The notes under the pieces: generated by a model
Seen by the model: the letters and a program-made list of their open reading frames with translations, nothing else
What the model was told of the DNA's origin: nothing
The model's database searches: none
In this document: positions 1 through 59,967 of the stretch, piece by piece
How the letters are laid out: each line of letters begins with the position of its first letter
How positions within the stretch are numbered: the stretch's first letter is position 1
Origin: Phoronis australis
Taxonomy: Eukaryota; Animalia; Phoronida
Direction of reading: 5' to 3'
Assembly: GCA_002633005.1 (NCBI GenBank)
Contig: NMRA01000079.1
Coordinates: forward strand, 510,102-574,101
Length of the DNA: 64,000 bases
Position numbers and translations under genes: made by a program

Positions 1-133
1 TAAGCTGGTTTTGTTGTGAGCTCTGTCGCCTCGAGCAGGAACAAAACGTCTTTCACATTAAAGGTAGTCTCCACTGAGCAAGTTCATGCAAGACCTACAA
101 ACTCTTTTAAGAATCGGAAATCTTAAACCAAAC

Positions 134-12400: not shown

Positions 12401-15400
12401 ATAAGCATAGACTATATACAACATGGACCGCCAACTCTATATATTCCCAACGCGCAAAATCAGTCGGTGATATTGCACACAAGCCGCGACCACCGCGACG
12501 GCAACAATCACTAGCGCCGTTATGCATGTTTTAGGTCCTATGAGTCACGTCGTCTGCTCACTAACGGTATGTAAGACCCTAGAAAATTGACCAAACATGG
12601 TTACCTTTGGAACATCATTTATCAGATACGATGCTTTATTCATTGTTCTCCAAAACACCGTTAGGCATTTTTTAAAAATGTTCCACTTTTGCATGACGAC
12701 GTTTTATGAAAACATTCAAAAGTTGCAAATGGCGAATACGAAGTGATAGCACTTATATCAGACGAAAATTAGCCATGATATTGATGTTTTTTGTTTATGA
12801 CTATACCGGTACCTTTCTTTTTGCTATATTTTGCTATATTTTGCTATATTTTGGTAACTTAAGGTTACGACATCCTGGTGGGTATAGTTTGGTACAAAGT
12901 CACCAATGAAATACTACAGTTTTTTTCTTTCAGAAAGTATGTACTTTCACGGAATTAAGTAATTTTGTAATTTTGTAATTTTGTAATTTTGCACATATTT
13001 GGCTAAATACACTGCCTTGTCTGGATAAAATTAACCGGAAGCCGAGCTGTGCATCGGAAGAGAGTGGGGGCTCCTCTAGGAATTACATAAGGACATCTCT
13101 GAGCTACGAATCTGTTGTGTAAGATCTGTGACATGAGAGAGAAGTAACTTGTGTACCTTGTGCAGCCCGATGGAAGCTGGAACCACCGCAATCTCCTCCA
13201 ACATCAGTTGGAACTGTGGCGCGTGCAGGGCGTCGTAAACTATAGGGTACCAGATTTGCAGTCGGATGGGGTACTGAAAAAAAGAACGCCGTGGTAAGTG
13301 GCCAAAACGTTCGAGAAAGAGCGATATACACTACGCTCCTTCTAATTCATTTAAATTCTCACAATTTTTCTTCATTTCCAAATTGAGGAATGAGAGATGA
13401 AACTATGAAAACTGAATGACTACAATCAAAGTGTACTACTACCACTTATTAAAATTAAAACAAACGTTACAAAAGGAATTGGTCTCGTAAAGCAGACGAC
13501 ATTGTGTGAATTAACACGAACAGGGCAATACGACTTTGGGACTATTTTTGCGGTGGAATAAAACTTGCATAGACTGCAAATCAAACACAGGAACTGCCGT
13601 GATCATGCGCATTAGTCTCATTTGAAGATTTAGCTTATTACTAACAGATTGCTGTAGGTTGTCGTGGTTATATAGCTCGAAACTGTGGACGCGACCGCCT
13701 GGCAAGTCGTAGGTGTAATCAACTAAGGACATCAGCCCGCCGACGTCAGTGTTCCACGCGTCTCGTTTTTCCACGAGATTGCCGTAGTAAACTTCATTGC
13801 CTGCAAGAAGAGAGACAACAGTGGCTAAAAAATACAATCTGACTTTTGTGTAAAGTATTGGCACAAACTTCCTTAGACTTTCGTGTCACTTTTTGGGTGA
13901 AATCAACGGTTAGGAACTATAAACCAGCTATACTGTTCTAACAAAAAAAACTAATTTTTGATTCAGTCCCCTACGGTTAGGAAACAGTGTCCGATTCTTC
14001 CTTAATTATATTAAAATTAGTTTCTGGAATTGAGAACGACTCACAATACGACCAGTCAAGTTAACTAGTTTGAGCCAGGCCTCGCCAATGATCAGTGCCC
14101 AGTATGTTTGGTATACGGCGGATTTAAGAAACAAAACAGCATTCGTCCCAAAATTTAATTCTTGTTAAACAATTGAGGATGTACATAGACCTTATAAATA
14201 GGAGTTTGCTTTTTGACAGATTAGAGCGTACATGCTTCAACATCGACTCCAATAGAATGATTCCAGTTGCGATTCTCTGTAAAAGTATATGCCTTCTGCA
14301 CGGTGGGTGCATCTGCCTCGTTGAAAATGTAGGTGTGCATTACGTATCCGGGTGAAACGTGATAGGAGAGTGGGTCGATCTTCTGGGTAGTAGTGAAGCC
14401 CATGAGGCTGCCCTTCACGATGTAGACGCTTGTTGGCACTTCAAACTATAAAGCGACGTACATGTAGGATTACAAGAATCAAGCCGTAATTAGGGTGTGT
14501 TTAGGAGCACTCGATGCCATCTCTGTGCCTTCTTGTCTTGTTGACTACAGCAGGAATTGAAGCTAGATACGATTTTACCAGTTTTTACAAAGTCTTTAAA
14601 TGTTGTCAATAATTACATGCACAAAACGCAATTTGCAAAATAGGCTGTCTTACGACCAAGGCTATTCTGGGGACACTGATTAAGTTTTCATGGACTAGAA
14701 TGCAAGGACACACGGCTTTGGGGATTTTTAATTGGATCAAAAATCACTATTAGCTTCAATACATCACATGAAAAAGTCTTTGTAATGTAAATTTGAACAG
14801 TCTTATTTGACAAACTCGGGTCCGGTAACTTAAAGATCTTTAATGAAACAAGAGTCCAGGTTTACGCCAGTGGAAGGTATTTGTTAGACTCACTCACCGT
14901 TTGGATTTGATTGACAGGTTGGAGAGCGGCTAGTATTTCAAACACCAGCTGTAGGCGTGGTTTATCCAATGTGTGATAGGCAATGGGATACCAGATTTGA
15001 AATTTCAGATCAGTCTAAAATGATATGACAATAAATCATAGGAAAAAAAGTAATCCAAAAACAATAATTAATAACAAGTCAATCAGTGCAAATAGTCGTT
15101 TATATTACAATGAATGAATTCAAACTGTCTTTCCGATAGTATTTCACCTAAAAAAATTTTGTACAACGGAAACTGACCATTCATTCCCACAGTTCAACAT
15201 TCCAAAATCTTCGACCAACTACTTCAGTAACCGCCATTTTGCCAAGATAGTCTATTAAGCATACTCGTGAATTTGCGAGGTCTTGCTTTTCTCGCGAACT
15301 AGGTCCACCGCACGTTCCCCTGAATACAGCTTCTGCCTCATACCTGTGCGTTTAAATCTTGGGCGAAAACGTGAAACCGACGCAGTCTCCCATCTGGTAA

Positions 15401-20978: not shown

Positions 20979-23383
20979 GCATGCCAAGATCCTGAAGAGT
21001 TTTGCCTTGCTGACCCACTAGTCCACACAGACGTCAGGGCAGAGTTCAGTAATTCTAGGACGTCGTTAGGACCTCGCTAAAAATAAGACTTCGCGAGATT
21101 ACGCGAGATATTGGCATGTTTTCCATAAGAGCACGTGATTTTATTGGCCAGATTTTTCACGCCGCGAGACAGCTACTGACTCTATACCCATGTGAGTAAG
21201 ATCTGTACTGGTTTGGACATTAAATTTGCGACAGTCATGCGTAAATTATCCTGTAAAAACCCGCGACGGGAAAACGCGAGTGTTTGCGTTGTCCGCATTC
21301 ATTCGACTGGAGTGTTCTCATTAACGAGTGCTGTTTTCGCTGAGTTTTGAGTTCTGTGTTTTTATCTACGTACTTTAGTTTTGTTGTCTCATTTCATCTA
21401 GTATATCATCTGGGTTAGCCGAGTTGCGTATAGCCTCATTCCTAGCTGACAGGAAAATACCAGGAAGTGGTTTATTGAGCTATCGCTTGTCTGGTTTGTG
21501 GATTTTAGCTTAATAGGCCTACTCAGTTTGTTGCTGCTGCTCCTGTTGTTGTTGTTGTTTTGTTATTATTGTTGTTGTTGCGTAGTACGTGTTGTGGTAG
21601 TGTTTAGGATTTAAAGTACGTGATATGGCCCTTTCTGTTTTGTAGACCCTATGTTGTGACGAAGTACCATGCCCGTCAATCCTCCGTCCATGGTAACCGA
21701 AAACATCGTGTTTANNNNNNNNNNNNNNNNTAAATTTTTTAACTTAAAAGTTCACCTGATTAATAGTGCCTGAAGTTACTTTCCTAATTGTCTGTGGCAG
21801 CCGATCCTAGCTCATGTACAGAGTGTTGGCTGCTGTGACGCTGCTGTTGTGATGAAGTGACATTCAGTTCAGTCAGATGAAAACTAAATGCGGTGTTTTC
21901 AACCTGATTCTGAGTCAAGTCACTGGATTCTTTTTCCACCCTCAGCAGGACTACTGACTCATTGTTGTTGACCCAACGCTGGTATGTGATAAAAAGCGGA
22001 AGTTTATGTCGTTCCAGTTTAGCTGTACCGCTAAGGGCTTAGCCACCATACGTGGCTATATGTGAGCGCGTAGGGACCACGTAGTAGTTAACTTTTCTGT
22101 GTGAACACTTGATAAGTCGTGTAGAGACTGGAAACTCCTCTGAGAATCAGAGTGACGGACTGTCGGTTGTTATCACTAACATTGTTACCACTCACAATTA
22201 CGGACAAAAGCATTGGTTGAGATCGAGTTGTGACTGACCTCAAAGACCGGCTGCTGTATTTGTATATTTTATAAGTAAAACCAGCGGCGAGCAGATAGTG
22301 TTTTATTTCTGCACCGTTGCTTTGAAAATTTTGTCTTTCACGAATGTAAAATACGTATGTTTCGGCTAAGTAGGCTACACAACTGCCACTAGATCACGTT
22401 ATTTCAAAGTCAAAAGGTGAATCACGATAACCGCACTTAATCTGTCGTGACTTGTCAACATCAAATTGTGTGACATGGTTTGAGCGTCCTAGTTACGCCC
22501 GTGGCCTTATAATTTATGCGCGTCAGTAGTTAGGCCACGAACCTACGCGTTTAGCTAGAGGCTCGTTTCCATTGGTAAGTAATATAAGTATAAAGCGAAA
22601 TGTATAATAGGTCTACTTTTTGATTTTATATCATTTTCTGAATAAATAAGAGAAGTCCGTAACGTGTAAATGCGTAATCCGCACTGCGTTTATTTGAAAC
22701 GGATTGTGTAATCGATTGTCTGCGCGTAATGGATACGGAACTCCGACATGGAGTCAAAATGGCAACTACATGTACATGTACCTGTCTTCCGCCCATGGCA
22801 AAGGACAAGGCTGTCCTTCCCTAAGAATAAAATCTTCTCACAACGTCATCTACGTGCACGTGTCCTTTGCCCCCTGGAAATAATTGAGAGTTACAGTAAT
22901 TCACACTATTTTCACTCATGATTTGATCGTGGACACGTTAAGTTAACTTGCTGATTTTTTAAAAGCTGGCTCATGGAAACATGAAAACGCATTGGTTATG
23001 GCAAGGAGTATATCGCTCATCACGCATTGCATTACGCACTGACTGAAAAAAACACGGATTTTTGCACAAGTGTTTGAGATGTAGACGTATGCTCACGTGC
23101 GGGCACAGACAGCTGGCCTCTGTATATAAACGCACAGGTCTCAGGTGGCCCTCTGTGTGTCTATTGTGTCGTTTAGATAACTTCCAATTACTATTTCGTT
23201 ATGAGCCCACACATACACGTGATCCGAAAATGTTCGCGAAAATATTCTAGTTTTGTAATATTTTTAGACTCCTAATACACGTTAGTTTAATTATATATCA
23301 ATTGATTTCCACGAAAGTTAACTCTCACGAGCACGGAAATTAAGTATTTTTTTGGAATTGCAGATAATTAAAGCAAGTCGGGG

Positions 23384-23590
23384 ATGAATGAAGATGACAA
23401 GATTCGACTGCGGGTGAACCGCCGTGATATTGTGGAAAACGTACAAACTGAAGAGATATGTCATCGCTTGATAGCTGAGGGTATACTTAATGAAGATGAC
23501 GATGAGAGGATTAGAGCGGAGAAAACATCGAGAGACAAAGCAGCTGCGTTGTTGAATATGTTGCCGAAGAAGGGACCAAATGCTTATAAG
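23384..23590 (+). CDS. Paralog 1 exon 1, CARD N-terminal part
   Basis: 69 codons ending TAT AAG|gttttg; resembles caspase-9/RAIDD-type CARDs. Confidence 0.88.
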
Positions 23591-26500
23591 GTTTTGAACT
23601 TGTTTACGCCGTTTTATTCAGTGAATATTGATTTAATTATATGATGGCTTTTGAATTATAAAATCTCCTGGTTTGGAACGTTTTTAAATTTGAAATGTGA
23701 GAGGTTGTCTGAGAAATACTCTCCAAATATGGGATTTGGGTCGCGACGGTTGATTTTGAATATACCACAATCGTAGTGTTCTTCTCCAACAGGAGCGGTC
23801 TCCAGGAGGAACATAAATATTGTATTGATGATCCTACATTGGCTTTTTTGACAAAATGGCTCTTAAGTGTAGTGCAGTTTGGATGAAAAATAGTACTTTA
23901 TTTGGTCTGTCTGTGTTAAAGCCTCCGATCCGTAACCAAAACACAGACATCAAATGTACTTGTATAACTAAAGTAAGAAAGGAGATTCGATACCTAAAAA
24001 TGAACACGAAAAGGGACTACTTTCTTCAGTGACGTGGCATAACCAAGCAAGATAAATCACAATTAGATAAGTGAAAAAGCGCTTCAGTCTACAACTAGGA
24101 ATAATAATGCGAAATTGAAATTTTTGTAGAGTTATTTAATTTTCAAATTGGTTTTAACATTTACAGGCTAGGACCTGGCGTCTACTTATTTTTGTCATTT
24201 TCAATCGTATTTTTGAGCGAACACAGGATGTGTGTCTATTATTTTATCCTCGAGTACGCAATGGCTTACGGGGCTAACTGTCTAATCCTAATTTGCACTG
24301 GATGACCCAGCGTTAACGTTAAAAGTTCGAGTTTGAACTCGAAATCTCGATTTTTTCTCGAAGGGGTTGCTCCAATCTGGGGGGTCATCAAGTTCGAACT
24401 AGGACTAGAAAATCGTATGCTTAAACCATACTGTGCTCGAGCACATGTTAATAGAAACCTATCTTGAGTAGTTGCAAAAAGTAGAACGATTTGCCAAAAA
24501 TATTTTCGACTTACATTTCGAGCACAAAGGTTAGACCTCAATCCCTGGTTGTTTATATACCCGACCCTATTTCTCCTTGGGTGCAAGTCAAAATCCCATT
24601 GCTCTTATATGACAACACACAGAGTAATCGATGTTTTGATAGGGGCGTGTATACTTGAAGATCTGAGATGCCCAACCGGTCACTTGGTTTCCCCCACTGG
24701 CATTATCTCCCCTGTCATTTTCGCTCAACATTCACCCACGGGAGCCATCACTGCAGATGTAGAGACATATTTATGTAAAGATTTCAAAAATTGTTCCCAA
24801 ACGTAGACTGTTCTGAAACTTTATCTGAAGTTTAAATTATTAAAAATGACCCCGCTAGTGTAGTCCTAGCCTTCTCTCAAAATATTGGACCACAATGAAT
24901 TTTTTTCACTCAAAAGTAACCTTTCTAGCGGCATTTCCTCTTTGTATTCATTGCCGAAATAAGTACATCTGGGAAACATAAGGCGCGCCCCGTAAACCAA
25001 GTGTCTGGCCTAAATACCAAGATCACACAAGACCACGCAAGTGAAAGGCGAGTGATTCACGCTGAGTATCGCGAGAATGCTCGAGACCCTGTATGCTTTA
25101 AAGACCCTCTAACGTGGTTGTTTTCGGTAACATCAAAGTGTGTACTCTGGTAAACAAGTTACAGTAACTCAATACTGTTGTAGCGTAACCCAGACAAACG
25201 GCGGTGATTGGTCGGTGAGGTTGGAAAGTTGCATCATGGGAGAATTCTTTATGACCTGATGGCCTTCGATTCTACGAGAACAGATTTTCGCCACTAGAGC
25301 GTGACTAATGACCTTTATACGAGGGTCTAATTCGACTCCGCAGTTAACTAAACGGACCAGTAGATAATTTTTTAGTTGCGTGCATCTCGACCCCAATAAT
25401 TATTTTGGACTGTGTTTAATTCTCGTTTTTCGTCATGGTTTCAGACGTTCCGTGATGGCTTACAACAGGATCCAGTATATGAATGGATCATTAAGAAATT
25501 AGACGAAACAGATGTCTCCGGTGAGAAGTGGTGTTATGCATAAGTGGCAAAAAAAAACGAAAAAAGACAGCAAATTACTGCAGTAATATCGCTTATATTC
25601 TTCAAGTGGGACTGTTCAATTTGATAGAAAGATTGAAAAGTTTGCCATTTGGTCTTTGATTTGAGACAAAAACAAGTCAGGTTTTCTTATGAAAACATCA
25701 CGAATTTGCGTTACGTAATGATAAGAATTCTCATGTATTCGAATATGTGGACATTATACATTACTTTTGAATGATCACCCGTCTATGATACACTTGCAAG
25801 TTGTTTGGGTCAGGTTCTGTCACATTTACCTAATTAGAGTCAAACTCAGCAACGGATGTCAAAATCACGATTCTAGTGTTGGTACAGCATAGGCAGATTT
25901 TTTTTGGGGGGGGGGGGGTGNCATCGGAATGCTGACTGTCCCTCCTTACGGTACCCTAGATCCGCCAGCGTTGTACAGTAATGCATGGCCAGTTTTACAT
26001 TTAGTAATGTATGGCTGTCGTGAATATTACATGTATCAACATTAGTGTGACATTTGGACCTTGTAAGTCGACCATTCAAACTTTCGTGTGATTTCTTTTT
26101 AGGGATTGAACACCAAGGGAAACCTCAGCAAAGTTCTTCAGGCGAGACAAGTGATAACCTGTCTCGCATCACGAAGTCACTCACAGATCAAAACTGCGAC
26201 ATTATGAAGAACAACAAAACGATGCTGGAATGTTTGAGTTCGCCCACAGCCCCTGTTCACATCGTTAAAAACGCTGAGCCTAAAAGCACGCCAAAATATA
26301 GAATTAAAATAACTCTTGTCGGACGTTCATTTTCTGGCAAAACACGTCTTTTAGATTACCTGAAAAACAATCGCTTCAACGAATCATTGGATGACACCAC
26401 CACCTGCGGAGTCTCTTTTCAGTTGAAGGTGATGCCGACTAATTTGGGGGATGCAAGACTTGAATTGTGGGATACAGCTGGTCAAGAAACATTTATGGAG

Positions 26501-26881
26501 GTGTCGAAATCCATAGCCAGGCACTCTCGCTGTGTTGTCATTGTCATAGACGTTACTAAAAAAGACAGTTTGGATGTTGCATTAACCTGGTATAATATCT
26601 GCAAAGAATTGGGCATACACTATTGCGTTTTCATGTGTAATAAAATTGACTTGACAGAACGTGTGGAGCTAGACAGGGAAACCATAGAGAATGCCATTGG
26701 TGATAACCCGTGCTTCTGGGTCTCTGCAAAGACCGGTGAGAACGTGAATTACGCATTTTCTATGACTGGACTTGGTGCAGTCGTCCGTTCTAGCGCGGAG
26801 GTTGAATCTACGCTGGTTCAAAGTCGGATGAACTTAAACTTGCCTGAAAGAGAAAGAAGACGGTTCTGCATCATTTTATGA
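23384..26881 (+). CDS. CARD-Rab-like small GTPase fusion with CaaX box, paralog 1 (~353 aa)
   Basis: Exons 23384-23590, 25445-25520, 26103-26881 with GT-AG sites and compatible phases (0,1). CARD signature (LxxNRxDIVEN..., RIRAEKT..DKA..LL.MLPKKGPNAY..F...L). G1 GRSFSGKT, G3 WDTAGQE, G4 NKID, G5 SAK; C-terminus RRRFCIIL. Confidence 0.88.
25445..25520 (+). CDS. Paralog 1 exon 2, CARD C-terminal helices
   Basis: tcag|ACG TTC ... TCC G|gtgaga; TFRDGLQQDPVYEWIIKKLDETDVS; homologous exon at 35649-35724. Confidence 0.85.
26103..26881 (+). CDS. Paralog 1 exon 3, linker + Rab-like GTPase + CaaX
   Basis: tttag|GG ATT GAA; complete G1-G5 motifs; CIIL-stop. Confidence 0.92.
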
Positions 26882-28441
26882 GGTCTGACGCATCCGTGGC
26901 GTATGAGGTGATACATTAACACTTCATCTTGGTGCTTAGTTGAGAGCAAAACTATATTGAATCTTGTGTTCTGCTACACTCAATGGTTACCTGAAGTTTA
27001 TTTTGGTACTCATTTCTCGTTACAATTTTATCGCGAGCCCCTTCGAACACTGCACCTAGAGTACCTATACAGAAAGCATCAATCTGGCTGTGATAATATC
27101 TTGGCTTGTGTAGACAACAACAGAACGTTATAGCTTAAGTTTAAGACGCTATACCAGAGATCAGTTGATTTCCCTTTCCGTCTATTCCCAAGGTAGCAGC
27201 GTACCACTGCACCATTGGCTGTTTCCTTTTAGATTAAAAGCGACACGTTGGTCATGAACTTGTTTGTAACCTGTCTAGCTGATAATCAGGTTGGTACTGC
27301 ATTTGCAGGCCAAGTAGAAATCGCAAATACCCATACCTGGGCTGCGAGCGAGTCAGAGACCCGCAAAGAACCTGCCTTGTGTTTGGTAGCTTGGTCTTGT
27401 ATATGGAAATATGTAAACACAGTCTCAAATAGGACTGGTGCCCGTTCTCTGGTCGCAAACATTCGTAAAAACTCAAGATCACGAAAATCCTGCACTCTGA
27501 ACTATTCACGAGAGAAGTAGATAAATTTTCAAATTTGTCTAGAAAAGCACAAAAAGGGCTCATGTATTGCATCAAGATGCTTAGCCAAAACAACAGAAAT
27601 CTGAAGAGGGAAAAAGTTGTCGGACTAATTATTCTATTTTCATTGTCCACCCTACTTGTTGATCAACGTGGATGTAAACGTATTTGCAATGTATTAAATA
27701 AGAATTGTCTGAAGCCTGCTGCTCAGAAGATGTTAAAGATGTAGGATACGTTTTGATCCTTGTATGTGGAGATAGTTTTATATAATACCTCGTTTAAGTG
27801 TAAACGATACAAAAATATGCCATTTTCCATACAAAGTGTTGCATAGGACCCTTCCTACAAACGCTTAGCTATTTGAAATAAATTGTGTTAATTCTGATTC
27901 TTGAACTTTCTGTAAGAACGAATGTGAGACAATTGAACACTGTATTTTGTAGACTGTTGCGTCACGCGCTCTTTTTTGGTGCGACATTGAGAGACTGTTA
28001 TCAGCAGAGGTTGACTCCAAACTTCATTTGGGAAAAGGGCAATACTTTTTGGAACTCTGTTCAAAAAAATAAAACACAGTACTCAACTGGTTTCTATTGC
28101 ACACGAAATACTACATATACATTTCAAAAACTAAAATGAATGCCTTAACCTTAAATGTTTTTATTAATTATTTGAAAACAAGTTTTACCGATGAGAAGTA
28201 TATTATAAAGCAAAAAATCCAGATGAACTATAGGAATTCTATAAACCGTGGGAGTCTATCTTTGCTGGCTACGTTATCCATTCACTGATACGTGCATATA
28301 TTGTACAGTAGTAAAGTTAAGTTGAGTGGGGCCTGCACTGGGTGACTAACGTGTTTATGTGTACCATGTAAAGTTAAGTACCTCAACACTATTATTTACA
28401 TCTTTGTAATGTTATATTTGACTGGAATTGCTGCAACATTA

Positions 28442-30111
28442 TTATGCGCCCACATATTATATGTGGGTGCATATTGCTGTCATCTCTGTTTGGGCATCCG
28501 GCGTCCGCGACTGTATCTCCTAAACCCCTTGCAGGATCTTATTGAAATTTGGCAGGTGTGGGGTTGACGACAGAGGGCGACGAGTTTCGGACCGACCCGA
28601 ATACCCCTGTGCCCCCTAGTGACAATTTTAGTTTTTTCGTTTTCCTCTGTATCTTGAAAGGTCCTCAACCGATTTTCATGAAATTTGGCACATAGGCATC
28701 TATTAATGAGGTGACGCTATCCTTTCGTTTTCGGATGGATTTGAGGTATTTTGCACCATCTAGTGGCCATTTTTGTTGTTTACGAGTCTGTTGTTTTGGC
28801 GTCCATCCCTCCATCAATCAAACCGCTCAAAGAATGATTACGAAAATTGTCATGTATGTTCTTACTATGAAGTGGACGGCTGACGATGGTTTTCCGACGA
28901 CTTCAACTACTTTGGCGCCTCCTAGTGGCAATTTTGTTTTTTTGCTCCTATGGCGGTATCTCCTAAACAGGATCTTTACTAAATTTATTAAGTGTATTTA
29001 TATGATGTTAGTAACGCAGGACGACGACTTTTGTACAGATCTGACTATTGGTGTGCCACCTAGTGGCGATTTTATTTTTTTACGTTTACCTCTGTATCTT
29101 CAAGAGTCCTCAACGTATTTTCATAGAATTTGGCATACAGGCATCTGCTAATGAGATGACGCTATCTCTCCATTTTCAGACAGATTTGACCTAGTTTGCG
29201 CCACCTAGTGGCCATTTTTACTGTTTTCGAGTCTGTTTTTCGGCGTCCATTCGTCTATCAACCAAACCGCTTTCATGATAATTGTGAAAATTGGCATGTA
29301 TGTTTTAACTATGAAGTGGACGGCTGACGATCATATTCCGGCGACTTCGCGGACTACTGTGGCGCCGCCTTCTGGTATTTTTTTGCGCTCATGGTTGTAT
29401 TTTCTTAACAGTTTGCAGGATCTTTACTTAATTTAGCAGGGGTATTTATATGATGTTCACAACGGACAACGACGACTTTCAGAAGGATCTGACCACTGGT
29501 GTGCCCCCAAGTGGCAATTTTAGGTTTTTACGTTTACATTTGTATCTTCAAAGGTCCTCAACAGATTTTCATAAAATTTTGAATATGAGGCATCTATTGA
29601 AGAGATTACGCTTTGCTCCTGTTTTGGGATGGAATCGAGATATTTTGCGCCACATAGTGGCCATTTTTGGTCTTTTCAAACCCTGGTTTTGGCGTCCACC
29701 TCTCTGTCAACCAATTTTTTTTCTGGTTTTGAAAATTAAAATGTTCTCAGTGTGAAGAGGTGAAGAGTTTGATGATGGCGACTGACCACTGTGACGCCTC
29801 CTAGTAGTAGTTTTGTGTTGTTTCGCGCCCATAGCTGTATTAAGATAACAACAGACCACGACGACTTTCAGGCGGATCCAACGGATTCTGTGCCCATTAG
29901 TGGCAAATTCATTTTATTCTGTTTTCCATTGTCTCTCTGAAGTTCCTTGACAGATTTTTATGAATTATGGCATGTTCCCATTTTTTGGATGGATTGTACG
30001 TTTTTACGCCATCTAGTGGCCATTTTTATGATACAAATAAGTAACCCTCGAAAAGCACACCATCTGCAATGCATTCGTGGGCGTATTTCAACGCTTCGCG
30101 TTGCTCTTGTT
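28442..30111 (+). mobile_element. Helentron-associated (HINE/DINE-1-like) non-autonomous element with internal ~440-bp tandem units
   Basis: 5' ttatgcgcccaca...tgtgggtgcata fold-back; catccg/cgtccg microsatellite; units marked by gtgcc..ctagtggcaattt at ~28609, 29052, 29501, 29890; 3' gtgggcgtat + stem-loop caacgc-ttc-gcgttg + ctcttgtt. Confidence 0.7.
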
Positions 30112-31484
30112 TGAATAATAAATAGTAAATACTTAAAAAAAGAAATCTGAAGAGCCTTATACCGTTATCTGTAAATTACGTGAAGACAATATTCCCGATA
30201 GTTTACTGTTTCGAAAACTGAAACCATTAGGAACTTAAGAAACCGCTTCAAGCTTATTGGGGTTGAACATTCGAATGACGCATGCAATCCCTACCAATTA
30301 TCTACCACGGCGACGCTGAATGAATTCATTAACGCATCGATTCAAAACTGTTGTCAAGAAATAAAATCCCATCGCAGCAGTTTCTGTCCTTGATATTTCA
30401 ATTTATTTCAGCCTGTAATTTATTGCTTATGCGACAATTGGTACCACAGGAGCACAGATCAAATTTTACAGGCGGACAGCGTCACCTGTTGATGTAGAGA
30501 GGCATTCCTCAATTACAACCACCGAACGGCTCAGTTTCCCAATGAGTTTGGGATTTGAATATAGCAATTGCCAACTGTAATTAGGAATAAAACGATTTTT
30601 TCAGGAACATAGCAACAACAAAAATACCTGTTGCCTAGCCTATTTTCAGTGAATCTACGCAATATATGGATGAGAACTCAGGCTCGGGTGACACATCCGG
30701 CATTCTTCCTCTTCGAATATTGTTTTAGTAAATCATTCCCTGCGATGGCGTCCCCGGTCACACAAACATTTTCTCGGCAAGTCGGTCGTGAGAATTAGTG
30801 AGTAGTGTGGAATGCAGTCGCTTCGAGGCGCTGCTATAGTGACAGTGACCTACTTCTGGAAAGGTGACCGTCTAGGCAGGGCGTCTAGCTTTTCGGTTTT
30901 GTGTAAATGTGGTAAAAAGGTAAAAAACACTGTTAAATCATGGTACTTAGGCCATCATTGTTTGCATTGTTCCCATGTGTATCAGTTTTGAGTCTTTTCT
31001 AGAATTTCGTGCTTTTGATTCAAGCAGTTAATCGTATTTTTCGATTCAAGTCGCATTTCCGCAAAACACGTCATGCCGACGCACACTGCGCAAAATCGAA
31101 TTGCCTTGATGCGACCCTTATCGGACTCAGTAGCGCAGGTCGACGAATTTCCCAATGACTCATAATCATATGATAAATATATGTTTTTGCAGTGAGTGGT
31201 CAGTGGTGATCGAGGAACAGCTAAGCTCTAGTGCTTGCGTGTACTGCAGTGGCTTGACTTCACTTTGGGCCAGTAAAACTGTCAAGGCTAGTCAAAAGAG
31301 TGAAAAGGTGAAAGCAACCGCCTGTAATTCGTTAAACATTTCTTATTCTTAACGACTTGGCGTCATTACCTACACATAATGTAGGCCCTACCTAAGTATA
31401 GCCAGTAGAATCGCTACCGAGTTTGCGTTTGGAAATTGCCCTCATCATAGCTGTTGGCAGTCTGTTACGCTGGTGGGACACGGG

Positions 31485-33209
31485 TAGGGTGAGCAAACCA
31501 ATATGGCGGAAATTCAGCAAGAGCGAAATTTTGCCATTTTTCATGATTTTCACAAGCTCGTATTTATTAACATACTAAGTGGTGGAAAATGAAAAGTATG
31601 CTAGTCAAATATATAATTTTTCTTCTTTCTATTGATATCCATTAGAAAAAATTTGGGCATTATTGAGTATTTTTAAAAATTGAAATAAAGCGAGCACTTT
31701 ACAAATTTTTCACTCACCGGTAAATTCTTGTGACTTTCAGTAGGGGTCAAACATTCAGCTGTTATATGGCTGTTACAGAACCGATTTTAATGATATGTAT
31801 ATCAAACTGTTTGCTACAGAATTCTGCTTCCAACCATGAGTGTACTCTTTTTGTTTTTTTGACAAAAATATGAGATAATGTACTTTTTTAATTTACTGAC
31901 TCGCCACTCTCTCACCTGGAAAAATCCTGAAAGTGTACACTCAATGTCATAATCACCAATCATGTCCTAATCCATTCCTGATCAAATGTTTTCACTTTGT
32001 CTCACCATTTCCATTTAGGAACACTTCTAAAAAGGTAACTTCAGTCATTTTTCAAGAACAATGTTAACCTTTCCAGGGTTCAAACTAAACTCGAACCTGA
32101 TTGGTCAAATGTGTTCAACAGAACCAGTCAAAACTTCTCTAAATTACAAAAAGTGGCCCAAACCTGGTGAAATATTTTCATTAAAATAATAAAGAATACT
32201 TTTAAAATTTAATTTACTTCAATTTTGGGGATAGAGTCATTTTTTTCTATTGTCTTCAAAAATATTTTTGTTACACTTTTACTACCTCGTGGTGACGCTG
32301 TGATCAGTTTCATTTTTAGAAAATTAAACATTTCACCAAAATAACAGTCAACGCTGCAGTGCATCAAAACATTTTAGAATACAAATATGCTCTTTTTGGA
32401 TAGTTACCAACACAACACCTCTCAGTTTCTGTATTATTTGATAGGAATGAAATTGATTTAAAATTCATTGAAATTTTAGGGTCCAATTTAATTTTGTTTA
32501 ACTAAAATTGCATACCATTTTCTGTCATTTGGTGTGCAACTTAAGATTGTGAAAACATTGATCTTACTTGGGAAAAAAATTAATTTACATAACCTCACAA
32601 GTTTTTAAATAAATAATGAAATACTCTGAAAAAGACTAGTTTTCTGGTTTTTGCTCATTTTGAATTCATTTGTAATGCAAATTTCATTTTTTAGAATTAT
32701 TTCAAAATCTTTTGGAGCAAAAGAAACATGTTCACTAAACCATAGTAATTCTTGAAGTGTTTTGTCATTTTCAAGGTAATAAGCTGCTCTCTTTTTAAAA
32801 CATCATTTGTTCAACGTAGCTTCAGGGGCAAAAATGTCCTGTCACATGTCGATGGTGAATTTTTCAATTTTTGTTGTTCTTGTTCGTGCAAATTATAATA
32901 ATTTGTGGTTTGGTGTCTATGTCATGTTGTTAACCTACTTGCAAAGGACTCTCCACCGTGTTATAGGAACACTGTGAGGTATGGATTCCCAAATTTAGTT
33001 GTCTAAACTTGCCATTTTCTGTGGCCTGAAATTTCTGGGTGGTGTTTGCTGAAAAAAGGGCCATTTTTTAGGCTGTAAAATTCAAATAACTCGAGATCCG
33101 CCGAACCAATTTGAAAAATTCAAAAAGTTGTATAAACGGCATGTCTAAAGCTATCATTTAACTTTTCAAGTGTTTCTGATGAAATTTGTATTTGGGTCTG
33201 CTCACCCTA
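31485..33209. mobile_element. AT-rich non-autonomous TIR element (hAT-like TAGGG ends)
   Basis: tagggtgagcaaacc ... ggtctgctcacccta inverted termini; no ORF; TSD not resolved. Confidence 0.6.
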
Positions 33210-34060
33210 ACACTGACCTAGGCAACACGTAGCCCCTCGGTTGGCCGGTTAGGGTCTACAATACTTCCCATCGCTTTCTGTAGGAATTTCATCCTGTGTA
33301 TTTTAAACGGGCGGTAGGCGAAATCCACTCACCAATTGGGAGTTTTCATCTCGTCAAAAATACATTCTACACTTAAAACTATGACTTAAAAAGCGCTTAC
33401 TTTCTTCAGTGGTCTTTTCTACTTCTACATATATCTACGACAATTAAGGTAACGTTGGCGAAGCATTTCAACTCCTCTTTTTGGTCACCACGCGCCTAAT
33501 AACCACAAAATATTTCAACTGAGTCATGTGAGTTAGGCAAAGGCTAGCGCGAGACTGAGCAAAGTGCGTGACACTTGCAAAATAGCATGGGAAGGTATCA
33601 GGTGAAATTTGTAAGATTTGTGACCCTTGGACTTTTTATTCGTCAACATGCGTGATTTCACGTAAGTTCCTCAAAATGGCACCCGGAAAGAGAAACTCGA
33701 GGAAAACGCGACAAATTTTCTTGGATATGTTCAAGTCATGCTGACTAAATTTTATCCAAAGTCATGGTATGTGTTAATTATAACTCCATGTTCCTATATG
33801 TATGGTTCATTTGGTTTTATTTGTTGTATTTTGAAATGCGTAACTCTTTATGGGGATCTACTATTGTCCCAGTATGCCTGCGGCATTCAGGGCGATTTAA
33901 TTGCCTAGTGGGACCCTAGTTCTAGGCTTAGGAAGTACACCACTGTGGTGGTGCTCAAGCAGCCAGCCGACTAGTGGCTACTTGTTGCCTGCCAGCATCA
34001 CTAATAATGGCTGAGTGACCCATTTGATCTTTAACTTACAACCAACAGGTAAAACAAGGG

Positions 34061-34267
34061 ATGAATGAAGGTGACAAGATTCGACTGCGGGTGAACCGCC
34101 GTGATATTGTGGAAAACGTACAAACTGAAGAGATATGTCATCGCTTGATAGCTGAGGGTATACTTAATGAAGATGACGATGAGAGGATTAGAGCGGAGAA
34201 AACATCGAGAGACAAAGCAGCTACGCTGTTGAATATGTTGCCGAAGAAGGGACCAAATGCTTATAAG
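34061..34267 (+). CDS. Paralog 2 exon 1, CARD N-terminal part
   Basis: 3 nt differences from 23384-23590; AAG|gttttt donor. Confidence 0.88.
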
Positions 34268-37200
34268 GTTTTTTTATTTCCCGTTTACAGTCAGTGACTT
34301 TTGATTTAATCATTTGAAGAAAAATGAGTTGGATTCGAACTTTTATGAATTTGAATTTCTAACAGTAATCATGGGTCTGAGAAAGGCAACAGATCTGAGA
34401 TAACGTTGAGACACGAGAGATTCAAAATATTACTCCAGCAACATGTCGAACCATGTAGAACTTTCTGGCAGCAAATGTATGAAGAGTTGTTTGGCCAAAC
34501 TGTGAATCCTAGTGTTACAAATTTGTCCAGAATGTGACACTATTTCACAGCACAACCTTATTTACGCTGCAGACTATGCCTTGGGGCAAAAATGTCACAC
34601 AGCACATTTTTAGCATGTTTTTATCTGTTACGCTGTTTTAGTAATTTGTTAAGATATGATTAAATAGCAATTACTTTGAACACACTCAACATCTCAGACA
34701 ACAGAAATATTTCTTACTTCGAGTGACTAATTGTTGTTCGTCACTTTCAGACTCTTAGTGAAAGTCATCATCATTAATCAGGGCTTGGAATTTTCCGCGG
34801 AAACGCGGATTTCCGCTTTTTTGAAATGTGCTTTCCGCTTTTTTTATAATATTTCCGCGTAAAAAAAATCGGATTTGATATGAAATTTCCGCGGCAAATT
34901 CCTTTCTTACCGCGGCGTTGCAGACGACGTTCACCTCGGAAAGCGGAAGTCTTTATGTTTCGGAGGAACGTAAATTGTCAACATTGCCGGGGCATCTGGG
35001 TAAAGCGTGGTGTGATTTTCAATGGCGGCTCGTGTTATTGTTAAGCACGGCGACAAATACTACCGCTCTGCAGCCAAATTTGTGTGGGTTGGGAGTGGAC
35101 GGGCGAGCGAAAAGGACGCAGACGCATGCTATGGTGGTAACGTTTTGTTTTTTTTTTCTAGTCCTCCCGATTTTTGTCGCGGAAAGGTTCACATTGACCA
35201 TTTCAAAGGCTGGTTATCGGGCATGATTTGGGCCGTAAAAGTTTCCGCGTTTTTTGTCATTGGTCATTCCAAGCCCTGATTAATTGCGCCATTTTCAGTC
35301 AAGGCCATTTGCTGGTCTCAATTGTTCCATTGTTGGAAATGGTGGCTTTAGCTTTAATATTATTGGGCAACTTCTTAACTTAACAGTATAACTTGACCAA
35401 CCGTGCAACATCTGTCTCACGCCCTTTTGTAATGTTCGGATGTTCCCTTCAGTTGAATTTAAGAGTTCTGTCGTATGGCAACACCAAGTACTCGGCCCTG
35501 CTTCTAGACATGGGTGTATTATTTTGTTTGTTTGAGATTCATTGTTAGTAACATATACACATGGCTATTGGCCCAATCTCTTTCATGAAACAGACCCTAG
35601 GTCAGTATTTCAACTTCTGTTTGAGTTTCATTTTCTCGCTGCTTTCAGGCATTCTATGATAGTTTATGCCAGGATCCTGTGTATGAATGGATCATTAAGA
35701 AATTGGATGAGACAGATGTATCAGGTGAGCAATATAAAAAGCAGCACTCGACGCTTGCATTTAATGCCAAGTTGCATTTGGCAACTTGACAGAAATACCA
35801 GGTCGCCAAAACTGATAATCCCTGGTCGCCAAATGAAATCTGAGCTTGTCGAATCCAGCCTAGAAATTGTCGACAATAAAAATGTTGTACCCTTCTCCAT
35901 TAACCAATTTGTACACTTACTTCTCCAAATTTTCCGCCTAAATGTACAGTTCATTTTCCAACTCATTTTCTCTTCCCAATGAATGGATATAGAATGTAGA
36001 TGATCACCCACAATGGTGGCACGGGTTTCACCGATCTTGAATTATGGTTTTTGCTGAACAATTCAGACTTCTGTCTGTTCACTTCCTGTGGATATTTAAA
36101 CGCATATTTGATGTGTGCTAGCTGCTGGAGTGGCAAATGCACTGGTTTTATGAAATAAACGGAACAATTGTGTACCAAAGGTAATAAATCTAGACAAAGT
36201 ATTAGTAATTTAGAGTTTGGAAGTCAACTCAAACTTTGAAACAAATTTGTGGGGAATTATTGTCTGACTTGAGATTTTTCTCAGGTTGCCAAACATAATC
36301 TGACGTCACATTGGGGATCTGCAGACTACCATATAGAGAGAGAGTGGTGTAATAATGTACAGTTAATGCTAAAATTTTATTTAAGAGATTTGTTCCGTGG
36401 TAGGCGCCACAGCCAAATACTTTTAAGTCTCTTTGAAAATTACTGTCAGACAATTTCTCCAAGTAGGAAAAGTGAATTTTTCACCATTTGAACTGAAACG
36501 AGCAAAAATGTCCTAAGAATGCATTTCTATGTAGTTCTGATTGATCAAAGTCTTCATTCATTCAGAATTGTGGAGATAATCTCTTAGGCTTTGAAAAGAA
36601 TTATCTCTTGTCTTTGAAACTGGTAAACCAAATAACTTTTGCTGTAAACATTTTTAAATATTATTCTGCATTTTCGAAATGATAGATAATCTTCCTTCCG
36701 TTTTATGGACCCTTATATACATGATAGGTGGGTTCATATTGACGCCATTTATTTCTGGGCGTCCAGTGGCCACTGTGGTATCGCCTAGACTATCCTTGAA
36801 GGTTTTTGATGCCATTTGGGAGATGCAATTGTTACGAAACTGATTACAGATGGCCAATTGGACTACCATTGTGCCTCCTAGTTTTATTTTTTGTCTTGGA
36901 TTTCCATGAATTTTGTCAAATAGGTGTCTGTTAATGAGGTAACATTGCCTGGCAATTTTTTTTTGTATGCATAGCCGGAATCTCGTGCAGAATGATTATG
37001 AGATTTGGCAAGCGTTTACATTATTAAACAAAATATTGGAACTCAAAATGTACCTGAGACAGCTGTCTCTTCAGTGTGGTTACCGTATGTTAGATTACCC
37101 TTTAATGATGTGCTCTGTTACCATGGTAGGATCCCTTATCAGGTTGTCGGATTTGGAACAGTTTCTGACTGCAGGAATTACTTTCCACAAAGTAATACAT

Positions 37201-40200
37201 GCATTATGAAACTGATCACATCCAGATATTTTAAATTCATTATTCGTGGGTCAATTTTTGTGATTCAACAGTGAAATTTGAAGGTTTTCCTTTCTTAAGA
37301 TAGAGGTGCACTAATTTTTAAATACCGAAAATCAAAAAACAACTTGAAGCAATATTTCAGTACAGTCAGGCAGCTGTGTGGTTTGTAACCGGAGTCAATA
37401 GACCCAACACACCCAGCATGCTACCCTCTCACTAGCACTGGGGATAACTGAGGAAAGTGTGTGAGCTTAAAGGAAACCCCGCTGCGTTTCCTGTTCCACT
37501 CCTAATATATCTATGAATGTGGCATAAGATAACCACAACTTTCAGGTTCATTTTACTACTGCTGTGCCCCCTAGTGGCAACTCCATTTTTTAATGTTTAC
37601 CTGTGTATCTTCAAAGTTTCTTGGCAGAACTTCATGAAATTTGGCCAGTACGTTTGTATTAAAGAAGACACCACCTTTCTGTTTTGAACATATTAGAAAT
37701 TTATTGTCCTTCCTGGCGGTCATTTCTGTTATTTATAAGTTACTTTCTTTGGCATTAGCCTCTCTGTCCACCAAACAGCTCAAGGGATCGTCAAGACAAT
37801 TGGCAAATGTTTTCCTACTGATAATAGCTCGATTAACAGTGCTTTTTGCACAAGTCCATGTACTTGGGCTCCCCCTACTCGCGTTTTATTGCATTTGCAG
37901 CTGTATCATCTAAAGCCCTTAAAGGATCTTTGTGAAATATTACAAGTTAATTCATTTGGATGTGGCAGCAGATGGCAGTTTGTATTGGACTGATCTGACT
38001 GTCACTGTAGTGGCAACTCCATTTTTTAATGTTTACCTGTGTATCTTCAAAGTTTCTTGGCAGAACTTCATGAAATTTGGCCAGTACGTTTGTATTAAAG
38101 AAGACACCACCTTTCTGTTTCGAACATATTAGAAATTTATTGTCTTTCCTGGTGGCCATTTCTGTTATTTACAAGTTAACTTACTTTCTTTGGCATTAGC
38201 CACCAAACAGCTCGACTACCACTGTAGTGGCAATGTATTCTTTGCTTTTTACATCTGTATCTTAGGAAGCTGCTGGAGGGGTTTTCATGAAATTTGGCAA
38301 ACAGGTTTTTATTAGGGAGACAATCAATGAGATAGTAATAGCTAGAGTTGAAGTCACGTGGTTTTCATTGAGCAGAGTGGTCCGCGATCTTGCTGATAAC
38401 CGTGTTAGTCAAGATGCGTGTGTACTGTGTAGTATCTAGGAACCAATAAAAACTCGTAGCTTTAATGTTAGGATCGTCAAGTGCAATCTACGATTTTTAG
38501 AAAATCATCCAAGAAAATCATTGCATGCTTGAGCACAGAATTAATTAAATGGTCTTAACACTTATCTTTGGTCATAGCAGAAAACATCAAAAATGAAGTT
38601 TGATTTCCAGTATAACATGGAATCAATGATATAATTTTTTGGTCTTCCTAGGTTTAAAAATTGAAACTGAAATAAAATGATTTTGTGGGCGAGAATCTGA
38701 TTGCAGAAACAATATTGTTCAACTTCATTTGTTCCCTAGATAAGTCGATGTTTCATGGTCTTTGGTTGACTTTCCTTCTTAGTCCGATATGTCTTTAAGG
38801 ATTTAGTGACCTTATTCTCTCCAAGATATCTGTTGTTTTCTAGCAATGAAGAAACACAAAAAGTGACTACAAGATTAATAGTTTTACATTTTCACAGAGT
38901 GGACACTAATTCGAAGATTCATTAGTATAGCCAGGTTATTAGGAATAGGGCAGGATTGAAGGACAGGATGCTCCAAGAGTGCTACACCCCACAATGTTAT
39001 ATTGGGACAGTAGATGGGTTGTTTCTGTAGATTTCAAGAGACGAGACATTTGTAATGTAGCCTGGCAAGTTATTAAAATCTGCAACTGTCTTACTTGAGG
39101 AAAACCATCATTTTTATATTCTGTCTTGTTTATGGTCTTCTGATACTTACAGTGTATGCCTGGGTATGTAGGACAGGGCAGTTATAGTTTATGACCATTG
39201 AGTTTTGTCATAATTATTTTGTGGCGGGGTGTTGTCAGTATAAATGTACTAGTAACTGTGCACCAGTAAATGCCAGATACAACTGAATTGAAGGATTAAA
39301 TTAGAGTTGGTTGAAATCTGANTGCAGACTACCATATAGAGTGCTCGAAAGAGAGAGTGGTGTAATAATGTACAGTTAATGCTAAAATTTTATTTAAGAA
39401 ATTTGTTCCGTGGTAGGCGTCACAGCCAAATACTTTTAAGTCTCTTTGAAAATTACTGTCAGACAATTTCTCCAAGTAGGAAAAGTGAATTTTTCACCAT
39501 TTGAACTGAAACGAGCAAAAATGTCCTTAAGAATGCATTTCTATGTAGTTCTGATTGATAAAAGTCTTCATTCATTCATAATTGTGGAGGTAATCTCTTA
39601 GGCTTTGAAAAGAATTATCTCTTGTCTTTGAAACTTGTAAACCAAATAACTTTTGCTGTAAACATTTTTAAATATTATTGTTCTGCATTTTGGAAAACCA
39701 TTAACTATGATAGATAATCTTCCTTCCGTTTTATGGACCCTTATATACATGATAAGCGGGTTCATATTGACGCCATTTATTTCTGGGCGTCCAGTGGCCA
39801 CTGTGGTATCGCCTAGACTATCCTTGAAGGTTCTTGATGCCATTTGGGAGATGCAGTTGTTACGATACTGGTTACAGATGACCAATTGGACTACCATTGT
39901 GCCTCCTAGTGTTATTTTTTGTCTTGGATTTCCATGAGCTTTATCAAATAGGGGTCTGTTAATGAGGTAACATTGCCTGGCAATTTTGTTTTTTTGTATG
40001 CGTAGCCGGAATCTCGTGCAGAATGATTATGAGATTTGGCAAGTGTTTACATTAAACAAAATATTGGAACTCAAAATATACCTGAGACAGCTGTCTCTTC
40101 AGTCTGGTTATGTAAGATTACCCTTTAATGATGTGCTCTGTTACCATGACATGTTGTACAGTTCCACTGATCAGTTGCATACACTGACATGACTTCACAT

Positions 40201-41831
40201 GCACGAATACTGCTGTTTTGTATGCTCATTGATGTCCATGGGTTTCTATTAACTTTTATGCTCCCACATATTTATATGTGGCCGCATTATGCTCTCATCT
40301 CCGTCCGTCCAGCGTCCGTCTGTCCGGCATCCGCTGCTCTATCTCCAAAACCCTTTGACATAGGTTCATGAAATTTGGCACATTTGTTCCTTTCATGGAT
40401 GGGACAGCACGAGCGAACTTTCCGATGGATCCGACTACCAATTTGCCCCCTAGTGGCAATTTTAGTTTTTTACGCTTACCTCTACAACTTTCAAGGTCCT
40501 CAACATATTTTCATAAAACTTGCCGATAGGCATCTATTAGTGAGCTGACACTGTCATCCGGTTTTTGGATGGATTTGATGTAGTTTGCGCCACCTAGTGG
40601 CCATTTTTACTGTTTTTAATCTGTTTTTTGGCGTCCACCCCTCTATCAACCAAACGGCTCTTAGGGTGATTGTGAAAATTGGCCTGTATGTTCTTACTAC
40701 AAAGCTGACGATTTTACGATGACTTCGACTACTGTGGCACCTCCTAGTGGCAGTTTTGTCTTTTTTGTGCCCATGGCTGTATCTCCTAAACCGTTTGCAG
40801 GATCTTTGCTAAATAAAGCAAGTGTATTTACATTTTGTTCACAGCGGATGACAACAACTTTCTGACGGATCTGACCACCAGTGTGCCCCCTAGTGGCAAT
40901 TTCAGTTTTTTATGTTTACCTCTGTAACTTCAAAGGTCCTCAACAGATTTTCAGAAACTTTGGAATATAGGTATCTATTTGTGAGATGATGCTATCCTTG
41001 CATTTTCGGATGGAATTTGGGTACGTTGCACCACTCAGTGGCCATTTTTCCTGTTTTCCTGTTACGTAATCGTATTATTTTTCTTCAGGGATTGAAGATG
41101 TTGCCAAGTCCAAAGAGATGACTGTTACCGATGTGAGTTCGCTTGTGGATAAAGACTGTGAGCCTATGGAAAACAACAAAAAAATGCTGGAATTTCTGAG
41201 TTCATCAATGGCTCCGGTTCACATCGTAAAAGACACTAAGCCTAAAATCAGTCCAAAATATATTATCAAAATGACTCTCGTTGGTCACACCTTTTCTGGG
41301 AAAACGAGTCTCCTTGATTACTGGCAAAACAATCGGTTCAATGCTTCACAGCACGCTACCATTGGAGCCTCTTTTCAGGTTAAGGTTATGTCGACGAACA
41401 TAGGCGGGGCAAAATTGGAGGTGTGGGATACAGCCGGGCATGAAGCGTATATGAAACTTTCCCAACTTTATCTCCGGGGTTCTCGCTGTGTTGTGATTCT
41501 TATCGATGTAACTAATGCAAAGAGTTTGGAGAGTGCTTTACATTGGTACGGTTTATGTAAGGAATTTGGCAGAGACTATTGTGTATTCATGTGTAACAAA
41601 ACTGACTTGAAAGAACGTGTTGAACTCGATAGAGAAACTGTAGAGGAAGCAATTGGTGATAATCCCTGCTTCTGGGTGTCTGCAAAGACTGGTGAGAACG
41701 TGAATAATGCCTTTTCTATGGCTGCCCTGGGAGCAGTTGTCCGTGCTAGTGCCGAGACTGAAGCAGTTCGTCACATTAACATATTGAGGTTACCTGAAGG
41801 AGAACGCAGGTGGCACTGCATACTTTTGTGA
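34061..41831 (+). CDS. CARD-Rab-like small GTPase fusion with CaaX box, paralog 2 (~341 aa)
   Basis: Exons 34061-34267, 35649-35724, 41089-41831, with the same exon 1 and 2 sizes and the same phases as paralog 1. G1 GHTFSGKT, G3 WDTAGHE, G4 NKTD, G5 SAK; C-terminus RRWHCILL. Confidence 0.88.
34779..35278. mobile_element. 500-bp hAT-like MITE with 6-bp TSD ATTAAT
   Basis: Perfect 13-bp TIR cagggcttggaat/attccaagccctg; ATTAAT at 34773-34778 and 35279-35284; repeated ttccgcg motifs; in intron 1 of paralog 2. Confidence 0.8.
35649..35724 (+). CDS. Paralog 2 exon 2, CARD C-terminal helices
   Basis: tcag|GCA TTC ... TCA G|gtgagc; AFYDSLCQDPVYEWIIKKLDETDVS; 76 nt. Confidence 0.85.
36320..40148. 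repeat. ~0.8-kb near-identical duplication (36320-37125 / 39323-40148), second copy starting after a single N; probable haplotype artefact
   Basis: Near-identical sequence (ORFs 36654..36869 and 39598..39897); N at 39322. Confidence 0.75.
37555..38320 (+). repeat. Degenerate internal tandem units of the HINE-like family
   Basis: gtgccccctagtggcaa / catgaaatttggc motifs; 37570-37790 repeats at 38008-38215. Confidence 0.6.
40255..41060 (+). mobile_element. 3'-truncated copy of the HINE-like element abutting the exon 3 acceptor
   Basis: ttatgctcccacatatttatatgtggccgcat, (cgtc)n microsatellite, and the same ~440-bp units as 28442-30111. Confidence 0.65.
41089..41831 (+). CDS. Paralog 2 exon 3, linker + Rab-like GTPase + CaaX
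   Basis: ttcag|GG ATT GAA in frame with ORF 41118..41831; G1-G5 motifs; CILL-stop. Confidence 0.92.
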
Positions 41832-59622: not shown

Positions 59623-59967
59623 CAACCCCCTATGCGTGAACATCGTGTAAGTTCTACATGCAAATTTAGACCTTTTCAAAGATAATCTCTGACAGCGTTT
59701 TGGAGAAAAGTGCATAAAGCACAGTATCTGAAACTTTCATTTGAATCCAGGAAGTCGTTTCGGAGATGTGAAATTCCGAAGCATGCGCTCACCTGGGGGC
59801 CCACACGAGCCCCCCATTTGGCGAAGTGGGCAAAAAGGTTCTACCTCCTCAGGGAAACAACAACTCCGAAAAAGTAGAACACGAGACATAAGTCCATGAT
59901 AAGAAGACAGCAACTACCAAAGTTTGGCGAATACACAATTCATAGCTCAAAACGTACCCCGTGAATC

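Follow-up and report, generated by a model that had tools for sequence, protein, structure and literature searches.

MAVS shows its N-terminal CARD on a membrane by means of a C-terminal transmembrane tail and has no GTPase, and DAPK1 combines a death-fold domain with a Ras-superfamily G domain of the ROCO type in one chain. CARD-bearing Roc-COR (ROCO) proteins of Trichoplax are described in excerpts of PMC4104024, and the fusions described in excerpts of PMC5094078 are Roc-COR only. According to passages of PMC12373286, amphioxus has GIMAP proteins with a CARD-AIG1 or CARD-AIG1-HINT architecture, which are read as immune or apoptotic. The large Rabs Rab44, Rab45/RASEF and Rab46/CRACR2A, as covered by parts of PMC8303950, bear N-terminal EF-hand, coiled-coil and proline-rich modules and act in traffic. 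Here we analyzed a 64,000-nt stretch of Phoronis australis DNA (GCA_002633005.1, contig NMRA01000079.1, positions 510,102-574,101, forward strand; hereafter, the window), made up of animal genomic sequence that includes long introns and one collagen gene, and characterized two tandem genes within it that each encode a CARD, a linker, a Rab-like G domain and a C-terminal CaaX box. This architecture is real and expressed, is apparently undescribed, and is a variant of the proteins that combine a death-fold domain with a GTP switch.

Gene structure, transcripts and the CARD

The original prediction, made from the DNA letters alone, had proposed two three-exon genes. All four introns between their coding exons are bounded by GT..AG at the predicted coordinates, and joining the three coding exons of each gene gave open frames without internal stops, of 353 amino acids for gene 1 and 341 for gene 2. 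The two proteins are 72% identical and end in RRRFCIIL and RRWHCILL, respectively. Together with Pfam matches for both domains, these open frames and the CIIL and CILL ends bear out the proposed order of CARD, linker, G domain and CaaX box.

To assess splicing, we used a contig set (X1, whose RNA status is a guess) and, under the same species label, three raw RNA runs (X2, X3 and X4); about 18-19% of each raw run was examined, and read counts refer to that share. All four coding junctions put forward for checking were seen in raw reads. In gene 1, the joint 23590>25445 was present in 1, 1 and 10 reads of X2, X3 and X4 and was absent from X1 contigs, while 25520>26103 was present in 1, 9 and 11 reads and in an X1 contig. 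In gene 2, 34267>35649 was found in 3, 1 and 20 reads and 35724>41089 in 10, 3 and 28 reads, both also in X1, so that three of the four coding joints recur there. A 376-nt X1 contig contains exon 1, gene 2 exon 2 and a loose end matching the start of gene 2 exon 3. The joint reads had one orientation throughout, with the first mate on the minus strand. Expression was low and was detected in all three raw runs. The complete joint table for gene 1 held no alternative joint within 21800-27300; the gene 2 joints are those among the joints listed, and 332 further joints lie outside that listing.

Each gene consists of three coding exons and at least four exons in all. The predicted three-exon structure thus holds for the coding part, with its boundaries and frame, and falls short in the total, as 5' exons appear in the reads. 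Because these 5' exons splice to acceptors at 23364 and 34049, the first coding exons start there. An in-frame stop lies immediately 5' of the gene 1 ATG. The gene 2 frame is open upstream of its ATG, and the gene 2 protein could for this reason carry an N-terminal extension. The features of the locus, all on the plus strand, are as follows.

21466..21493, plus strand: probable alternative 5' exon of gene 1 (3' end only); an X1 contig has a loose end ahead of 23363 that matches here, and the match is followed by GT, making a joint from about 21493 to 23364 probable (contig-based, with no raw-read joint tabulated).
22500..22574, plus strand: 5' non-coding exon of gene 1 (3' end shown, start approximate); joint 22574>23364 in 0, 4 and 2 reads of X2, X3 and X4.
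23364..23590, plus strand: first coding exon of gene 1, CARD residues 1-69, ATG at 23384; Pfam CARD E 6.6e-14; RNA reads confirm the acceptor at 23364 and the donor at 23590.
23381..23644, plus strand: tract near-identical to 34058-34317, comprising the CARD exon and about 55 nt of intron, a putative gene-conversion tract; blastn 93% over 265 nt, exon 1 dS 0.023.
25445..25520, plus strand: 76-nt exon of gene 1, probable CARD end, residues 70-94; both junctions in RNA reads, length compatible with the 20 missing profile positions, no Pfam match alone.
26103..26881, plus strand: terminal coding exon of gene 1, with variable linker, pre-G helix, Rab-like G domain (GRSFSGKT, WDTAGQ, NKID, SAK), basic tail and CIIL-stop; Pfam Ras E 7.3e-24, motifs, one-strand RNA depth.
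31193..31307, plus strand: 5' exon of gene 2 (start approximate, 3' end shown), with an open frame that runs on to the ATG; joint 31307>34049 in 6, 5 and 28 reads and in an X1 contig.
34049..34267, plus strand: first coding exon of gene 2, CARD residues 1-69, ATG at 34061, DNA 98.6% identical to gene 1; Pfam CARD E 1.2e-13, junctions in reads.
35649..35724, plus strand: 76-nt exon of gene 2, probable CARD end; both junctions in reads and in one X1 contig.
41089..41831, plus strand: terminal coding exon of gene 2, with linker, pre-G helix, Rab-like G domain (GHTFSGKT, WDTAGH, NKTD, SAK), basic tail and CILL-stop; Pfam Ras E 2.3e-29, AlphaFold2 mean pLDDT 88, best fold matches Rabs.

The presence of the junctions in reads rules out an artefactual fusion of separate genes. 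A pseudogene is likewise ruled out by the open frames, an overall ratio of nonsynonymous to synonymous substitution rates (dN/dS) of 0.25, and the finding that 8 of the 12 positions at which X1 differs in exon 3 of gene 1 are silent. At position 26829, in the gene 1 tail, an in-frame 6-nt deletion was carried by 11/12, 2/4 and 17/17 reads; this is an allele in which the CaaX box is kept.

The HMMER check that had been suggested returned both domains, CARD (PF00619) at E ~1e-13 and Ras (PF00071). Exon 1 alone matched the CARD profile with 52.1 bits in gene 1 and 51.3 in gene 2, against a cut-off of 23.9, and in both genes the match spans profile positions 4-65 of 85. The 25-residue middle exon has no Pfam match on its own; since its length and frame fit the missing positions, it would supply the rest of the CARD. 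The closest solved CARDs were those of Apaf-1 (E 2e-5) and RAIDD (E 1e-4), matches too weak for a CARD partner to be named.

The G domain, its anchor and its relatives

Exon 3 matched Pfam Ras with 84.6 bits in gene 1 and 102.5 in gene 2, and the Roc profile scored below Ras in both (66 vs 85 and 77 vs 103 bits). Both genes keep GxxxxGKT (G1), the switch I threonine, WDTAG (G3), NKxD (G4) and SAK (G5) intact, and reach a stop codon about 45 residues past G5. No COR, AIG1 or EF-hand domain was among the Pfam matches (AIG1 at E 0.01). All 12 PDB sequence matches at E 1e-20 were Rab/Ypt proteins, as were all 60 of the family-profile matches listed. An AlphaFold2 model of gene 2 exon 3 (mean predicted local distance difference test score, pLDDT, 88, with a low-confidence exon 3 start) matched Rab8, Rab10, Rab1 and Rab5, with TM-scores of about 0.9 over the Rab chains. 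In the VIA comparison, headed by Rab3C, Rab27a and Rab9A, Z was 24.1 for Rab3C (root-mean-square deviation 1.5, 168 residues aligned) vs 16.4-16.7 for Roc domains. Pfam, PDB sequence matches and fold therefore agree with the proposal of a Rab-like rather than ROCO-type G domain, and the lack of a COR match with a stop so soon after G5 agrees with the claim that COR is missing. A truncated ROCO protein is ruled out by the Pfam scores and the fold comparison.

Identity of the G domain to any Rab was 30-40%. The RabF1-F5 consensus reads IGVDF, KLQIW, RFRSIT, YYRGA and LVYDIT; the corresponding segments are IGASF, KLEVW, AYMKLS, YLRGS and ILIDVT in gene 2 and CGVSF, RLELW, TFMEVS, IARHS and IVIDVT in gene 1. 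The motif claim of the original prediction thus stands for WDTAG in both genes; its IGASF and YLRG occur in gene 2 only, gene 1 having CGVSF and IARH. Binding and turnover of GTP are predicted.

Both paralogs end in a CaaL-type box preceded by arginines. Such an end was present in 3 of the 213 collected proteins shorter than 260 residues and belongs to a minority of Rabs. Excerpts of PMC5716267 assign the CAAL Rabs Rab8 and Rab23, which carry a single prenyl group, to GGTase I. From the CaaL box and the basic residues, membrane anchoring is a sound inference, and the lipid would probably be geranylgeranyl. Polybasic signals are treated in excerpts of PMC10590752.

Relatives of the two proteins were sought among 1.84 billion representatives. 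Three single-domain matches extend upstream of G1 at 38-40% identity: P0025, P0036 (XP_013389542.1) and P0037 (XP_013418664.1), the last two from Lingula anatina, under database names (SEC4, Rab-7a) that look automatic. These three and the window proteins have in common a pre-G helix (LxSPxxP..K) and a PCFxVS motif, a pair of features present in 4 of the 290 collected proteins, namely these three and P0172, a 2281-residue member of the P0036 cluster. Profiles built from the three relatives alone placed the window pair next among 292 sequences, in all four regions, including the pre-G helix, which lies outside the G domain. The window pair and the three relatives formed one clade with a FastTree support of 0.998 among 186 G domains, a tree restricted to proteins of up to 400 residues in which one clear G1 and one clear G5 could be placed. 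In IQ-TREE, on a 41-sequence subset with the 12 longest other branches, this clade had 99.5 in the SH-like approximate likelihood ratio test and 100 in ultrafast bootstrap (given below in this order), and the grouping of the window pair with P0025 had 77.3/97.

All three relatives have two predicted N-terminal hydrophobic (membrane) helices and lack both CaaX box and CARD; both window exon-3 products lack hydrophobic helices and end in CaaX. In the P0036 model, the second membrane helix continues as a single helix over residues 47-131 (85 residues), up to the pre-G helix. The N-terminal module and the membrane anchor thus appear to have been swapped between the relatives and the window genes. 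In the simplest history, which has moderate support, a membrane-helix-anchored Rab-like gene would have taken CARD exons that replaced its N-terminus, and gained a CaaX box. A literature search for Rabs with N-terminal membrane helices found no paper describing them, and this membrane-helix Rab-like clade may be undescribed in its own right. The collected proteins P0040, P0051 and P0143, which are unrelated to the CARD-Rab locus, are large and combine between two and four Ras-like domains with nucleotidyltransferase-like domains (DUF294 or SidM_N-like); one of them also has an OTU domain.

Paralog divergence, possible mechanisms and other features of the window

Exon 1 differs between the genes at 3 of 207 bases (synonymous divergence, dS, 0.023); for both exon 2 and the G domain, dS is 1.1-1.3. 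This pattern points to recent gene conversion of the CARD exon. Assembly collapse is an unlikely source of the near-identical CARD exons, as the gene 2 contig in X1, which departs from gene 1 exon 1 at only 4 places, continues into exon 2 of gene 2 itself. At positions 23546-23549, just 18 of 51 exon-1 reads of run X4 carried gene-2 letters, though gene 2 junction reads were about two times as many; this imbalance may be due to mapping, or the conversion may still be segregating. Purifying selection acts on the G domain (dN/dS 0.19). Its least conserved part is switch I-II (56% identity, dN/dS 0.28), and the segment from G4 to helix 5 is 83% identical (dN/dS 0.10). The most variable part of the protein is the linker after the CARD, with 36% identity and an 8-residue indel.

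We favor a lipid-anchored CARD scaffold whose GTP cycle would decide on which membrane, and at what density, the CARD is displayed to recruit a CARD partner, and we judge this reading about as apt to be right as wrong. Prenylation of the CaaL box would anchor the protein, a Rab-type GTP cycle would set both the membrane and the density of display, and the displayed CARD would recruit a CARD-bearing partner. Gene conversion would keep the two CARDs alike, for the same partner or for co-assembly, while the diverging switch surfaces would read different regulators, giving shared output from distinct input. Control would be exerted by location and clustering, as for a membrane-anchored CARD adaptor, and not by the G domain masking the CARD. 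If this is true, a Rab-type membrane address and switch would be linked directly, within a single short protein, to death-fold signalling, with no need of an NLR or ROCO scaffold, the usual source of a nucleotide switch, and the genes would offer a simple test of organelle traffic triggering caspase or immune signalling.

Several results weigh against this reading and the history proposed for it. The Rab motifs are partly degenerate, with F3 lost in both genes and F1 and F4 lost in gene 1. In gene 2 the catalytic Gln is replaced by His, a residue found at this position in 8 of 275 motif matches in the collected protein set, against 235 with Gln. The clade's next node out has a support of 59.1/49, with no tie to a known Rab subfamily among the few named references. 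Because of these three features, control by guanine nucleotide exchange factors, GTPase-activating proteins and GDP dissociation inhibitors is uncertain. The pre-G profile match of gene 2 is weak (E 0.029), and the direction of the swap has moderate support, given the grouping with P0025. The switch-region dN/dS does not exceed 1. A scan of 92 open reading frames and a tblastn search revealed neither a caspase nor a further CARD gene in the 64-kb window, and a role in immunity or cell death is suggested by the domain name only. The linkage of CARD and GTPase in one molecule is given by the shared 76-nt exon and the X1 contigs, the raw reads being tabulated per joint.

The proteins could instead be trafficking Rabs, in which the CARD merely stands in for the relatives' long helix as an adaptor or self-association surface, the CaaX box replaces their membrane helices, and the output goes through usual Rab effectors with no link to caspases or immunity. 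The modelled 85-residue helix of the Lingula protein would fit this, ending as it does at the pre-G helix that the window proteins keep, and the large Rabs, with their N-terminal EF-hand or coiled-coil modules, act in traffic (parts of PMC8303950). We consider the idea unlikely, as the CARD is a full-scoring PF00619 member that stays near-identical between paralogs while the effector surfaces diverge, which suggests a shared outside partner. That same pattern of tandem duplication, a conversion-homogenized output domain and most divergence in the switches is the one expected of paired sensors. In such an integrated decoy or guard, the Rab-like domain would serve as bait for the microbial effectors by which host Rabs are modified or loaded, and tampering with it would trigger CARD assembly and cell death or immune signalling. 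Switch regions differ between ordinary Rab paralogs too, however, dN/dS exceeds 1 in no region, and expression is low in each of the three runs, and we regard a decoy as quite unlikely, even though the PDB listings include bacterial effectors bound to Rabs (DrrA, LidA, LepB, VirA) and GTPase switches occur in counter-invader systems (passages of PMC8195603).

A membrane-bound inhibitor, whose CARD sequesters a caspase or adaptor on the membrane and dampens signalling like CARD-only decoys, would agree with a protein in which Pfam finds no enzyme effector and no repeat sensor, and conversion would keep its CARD matched to the target. The sign of action is unreadable from sequence, but a pure decoy would need no G domain under purifying selection, and we hold an inhibitor to be decidedly improbable. 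We give least credence, and very little, to intramolecular masking, the strict form of the original prediction, in which the G domain masks the CARD and GTP loading frees it. The two domains do share one chain and the nucleotide-binding motifs are intact, but no result supports gating of the CARD by nucleotide state within the molecule. As the CARD is joined through the most variable part of the protein, and the exon 3 start is of low confidence in the model, the linker fits tethering better than allosteric masking. More speculatively, and with low probability, the locus could represent an undescribed animal sensor class in which a membrane Rab-derived input (effector bait or organelle-state reader) is joined to a CARD output, the tandem copies share the CARD by conversion and diversify the switch surface, and the source is the undescribed helix-anchored Rab clade.

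Elsewhere in the window, a multi-exon collagen gene occupies 1-9400 on the minus strand (Gly-X-Y open reading frames, the longest of 432 aa at 7063-5768), and 59900-64000, also on the minus strand, holds a frameshifted retroelement of the long interspersed nuclear element type (RVT_1 E 3.9e-19 at 61783-62409). Direct duplications of about 93% identity pair 10508-12296 with 12298-14138 and 36320-37125 with 39323-40148, each with a single N at or beside the copy boundary (12297, 39322); possibly both haplotypes were assembled in tandem. Interspersed repeats lie at 28400-30100, 34800-35300 and 40250-41060, where RNA coverage is deep but divergent and comes mostly from other copies.

Comparison with known systems

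The original prediction knew of no described family with this architecture. Precomputed Pfam assignments held no CARD-Rab protein among 21 matches, nor among the best 120 of 948, and a Pfam scan of 21 of the 150 G-domain-search matches held none either. The best hit of the CARD exon among the 290 collected proteins had E 0.51, a weak search of longer proteins found it in none of 60 candidates, and two scans of metagenome contigs contained no CARD-Rab. Other CARD-Rab proteins were thus not found in collections that cover animal proteomes incompletely. A literature search for CARD with Ras or Rab gave nothing relevant, although a 2008 amphioxus immune-repertoire survey could list such a pairing; Ras, Rab and GTPase are unmentioned in PMC2575513. 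The claim therefore survives for the architecture as such in the searches run, but a CARD on a GTPase has precedent in CARD-Roc-COR and CARD-AIG1 proteins. The architecture has been seen so far in one species only, which limits its generality.

MAVS serves here as a working model only, for the display of a CARD by a C-terminal anchor, and no homology is claimed. The three relatives have the G-domain clade, pre-G helix and PCFxVS in common with the window proteins but lack the CaaX box and have, in place of a CARD, two predicted membrane helices plus a long helix. The same Rab-like core with two predicted membrane helices in other animals, and with CARD and CaaX here, would make a rare apparent swap of anchor and N-terminal module. 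As in the large Rabs described in parts of PMC8303950, an N-terminal module precedes a C-terminal Rab domain with a prenylation site; unlike them, the module is a CARD, there is no EF-hand match, and the G domain is far more divergent. The words "CARD" and "transmembrane" have 0 occurrences in that review. The amphioxus CARD-AIG1 proteins of PMC12373286 are, in the passages concerned, likewise invertebrate proteins with an N-terminal CARD on a GTPase, but AIG1/GIMAP is another GTPase class, and the window proteins have a CaaX box and neither AIG1 match nor HINT domain. With the Trichoplax CARD-ROCO proteins, as excerpted from PMC4104024, they share the pairing of a death-fold domain with a G domain of the Ras superfamily in a single chain; those continue into Roc-COR and further domains, whereas the window genes have NKxD at G4, a higher Ras than Roc score and a fold closer to Rab, and end in a CaaX box some 45 residues past G5.

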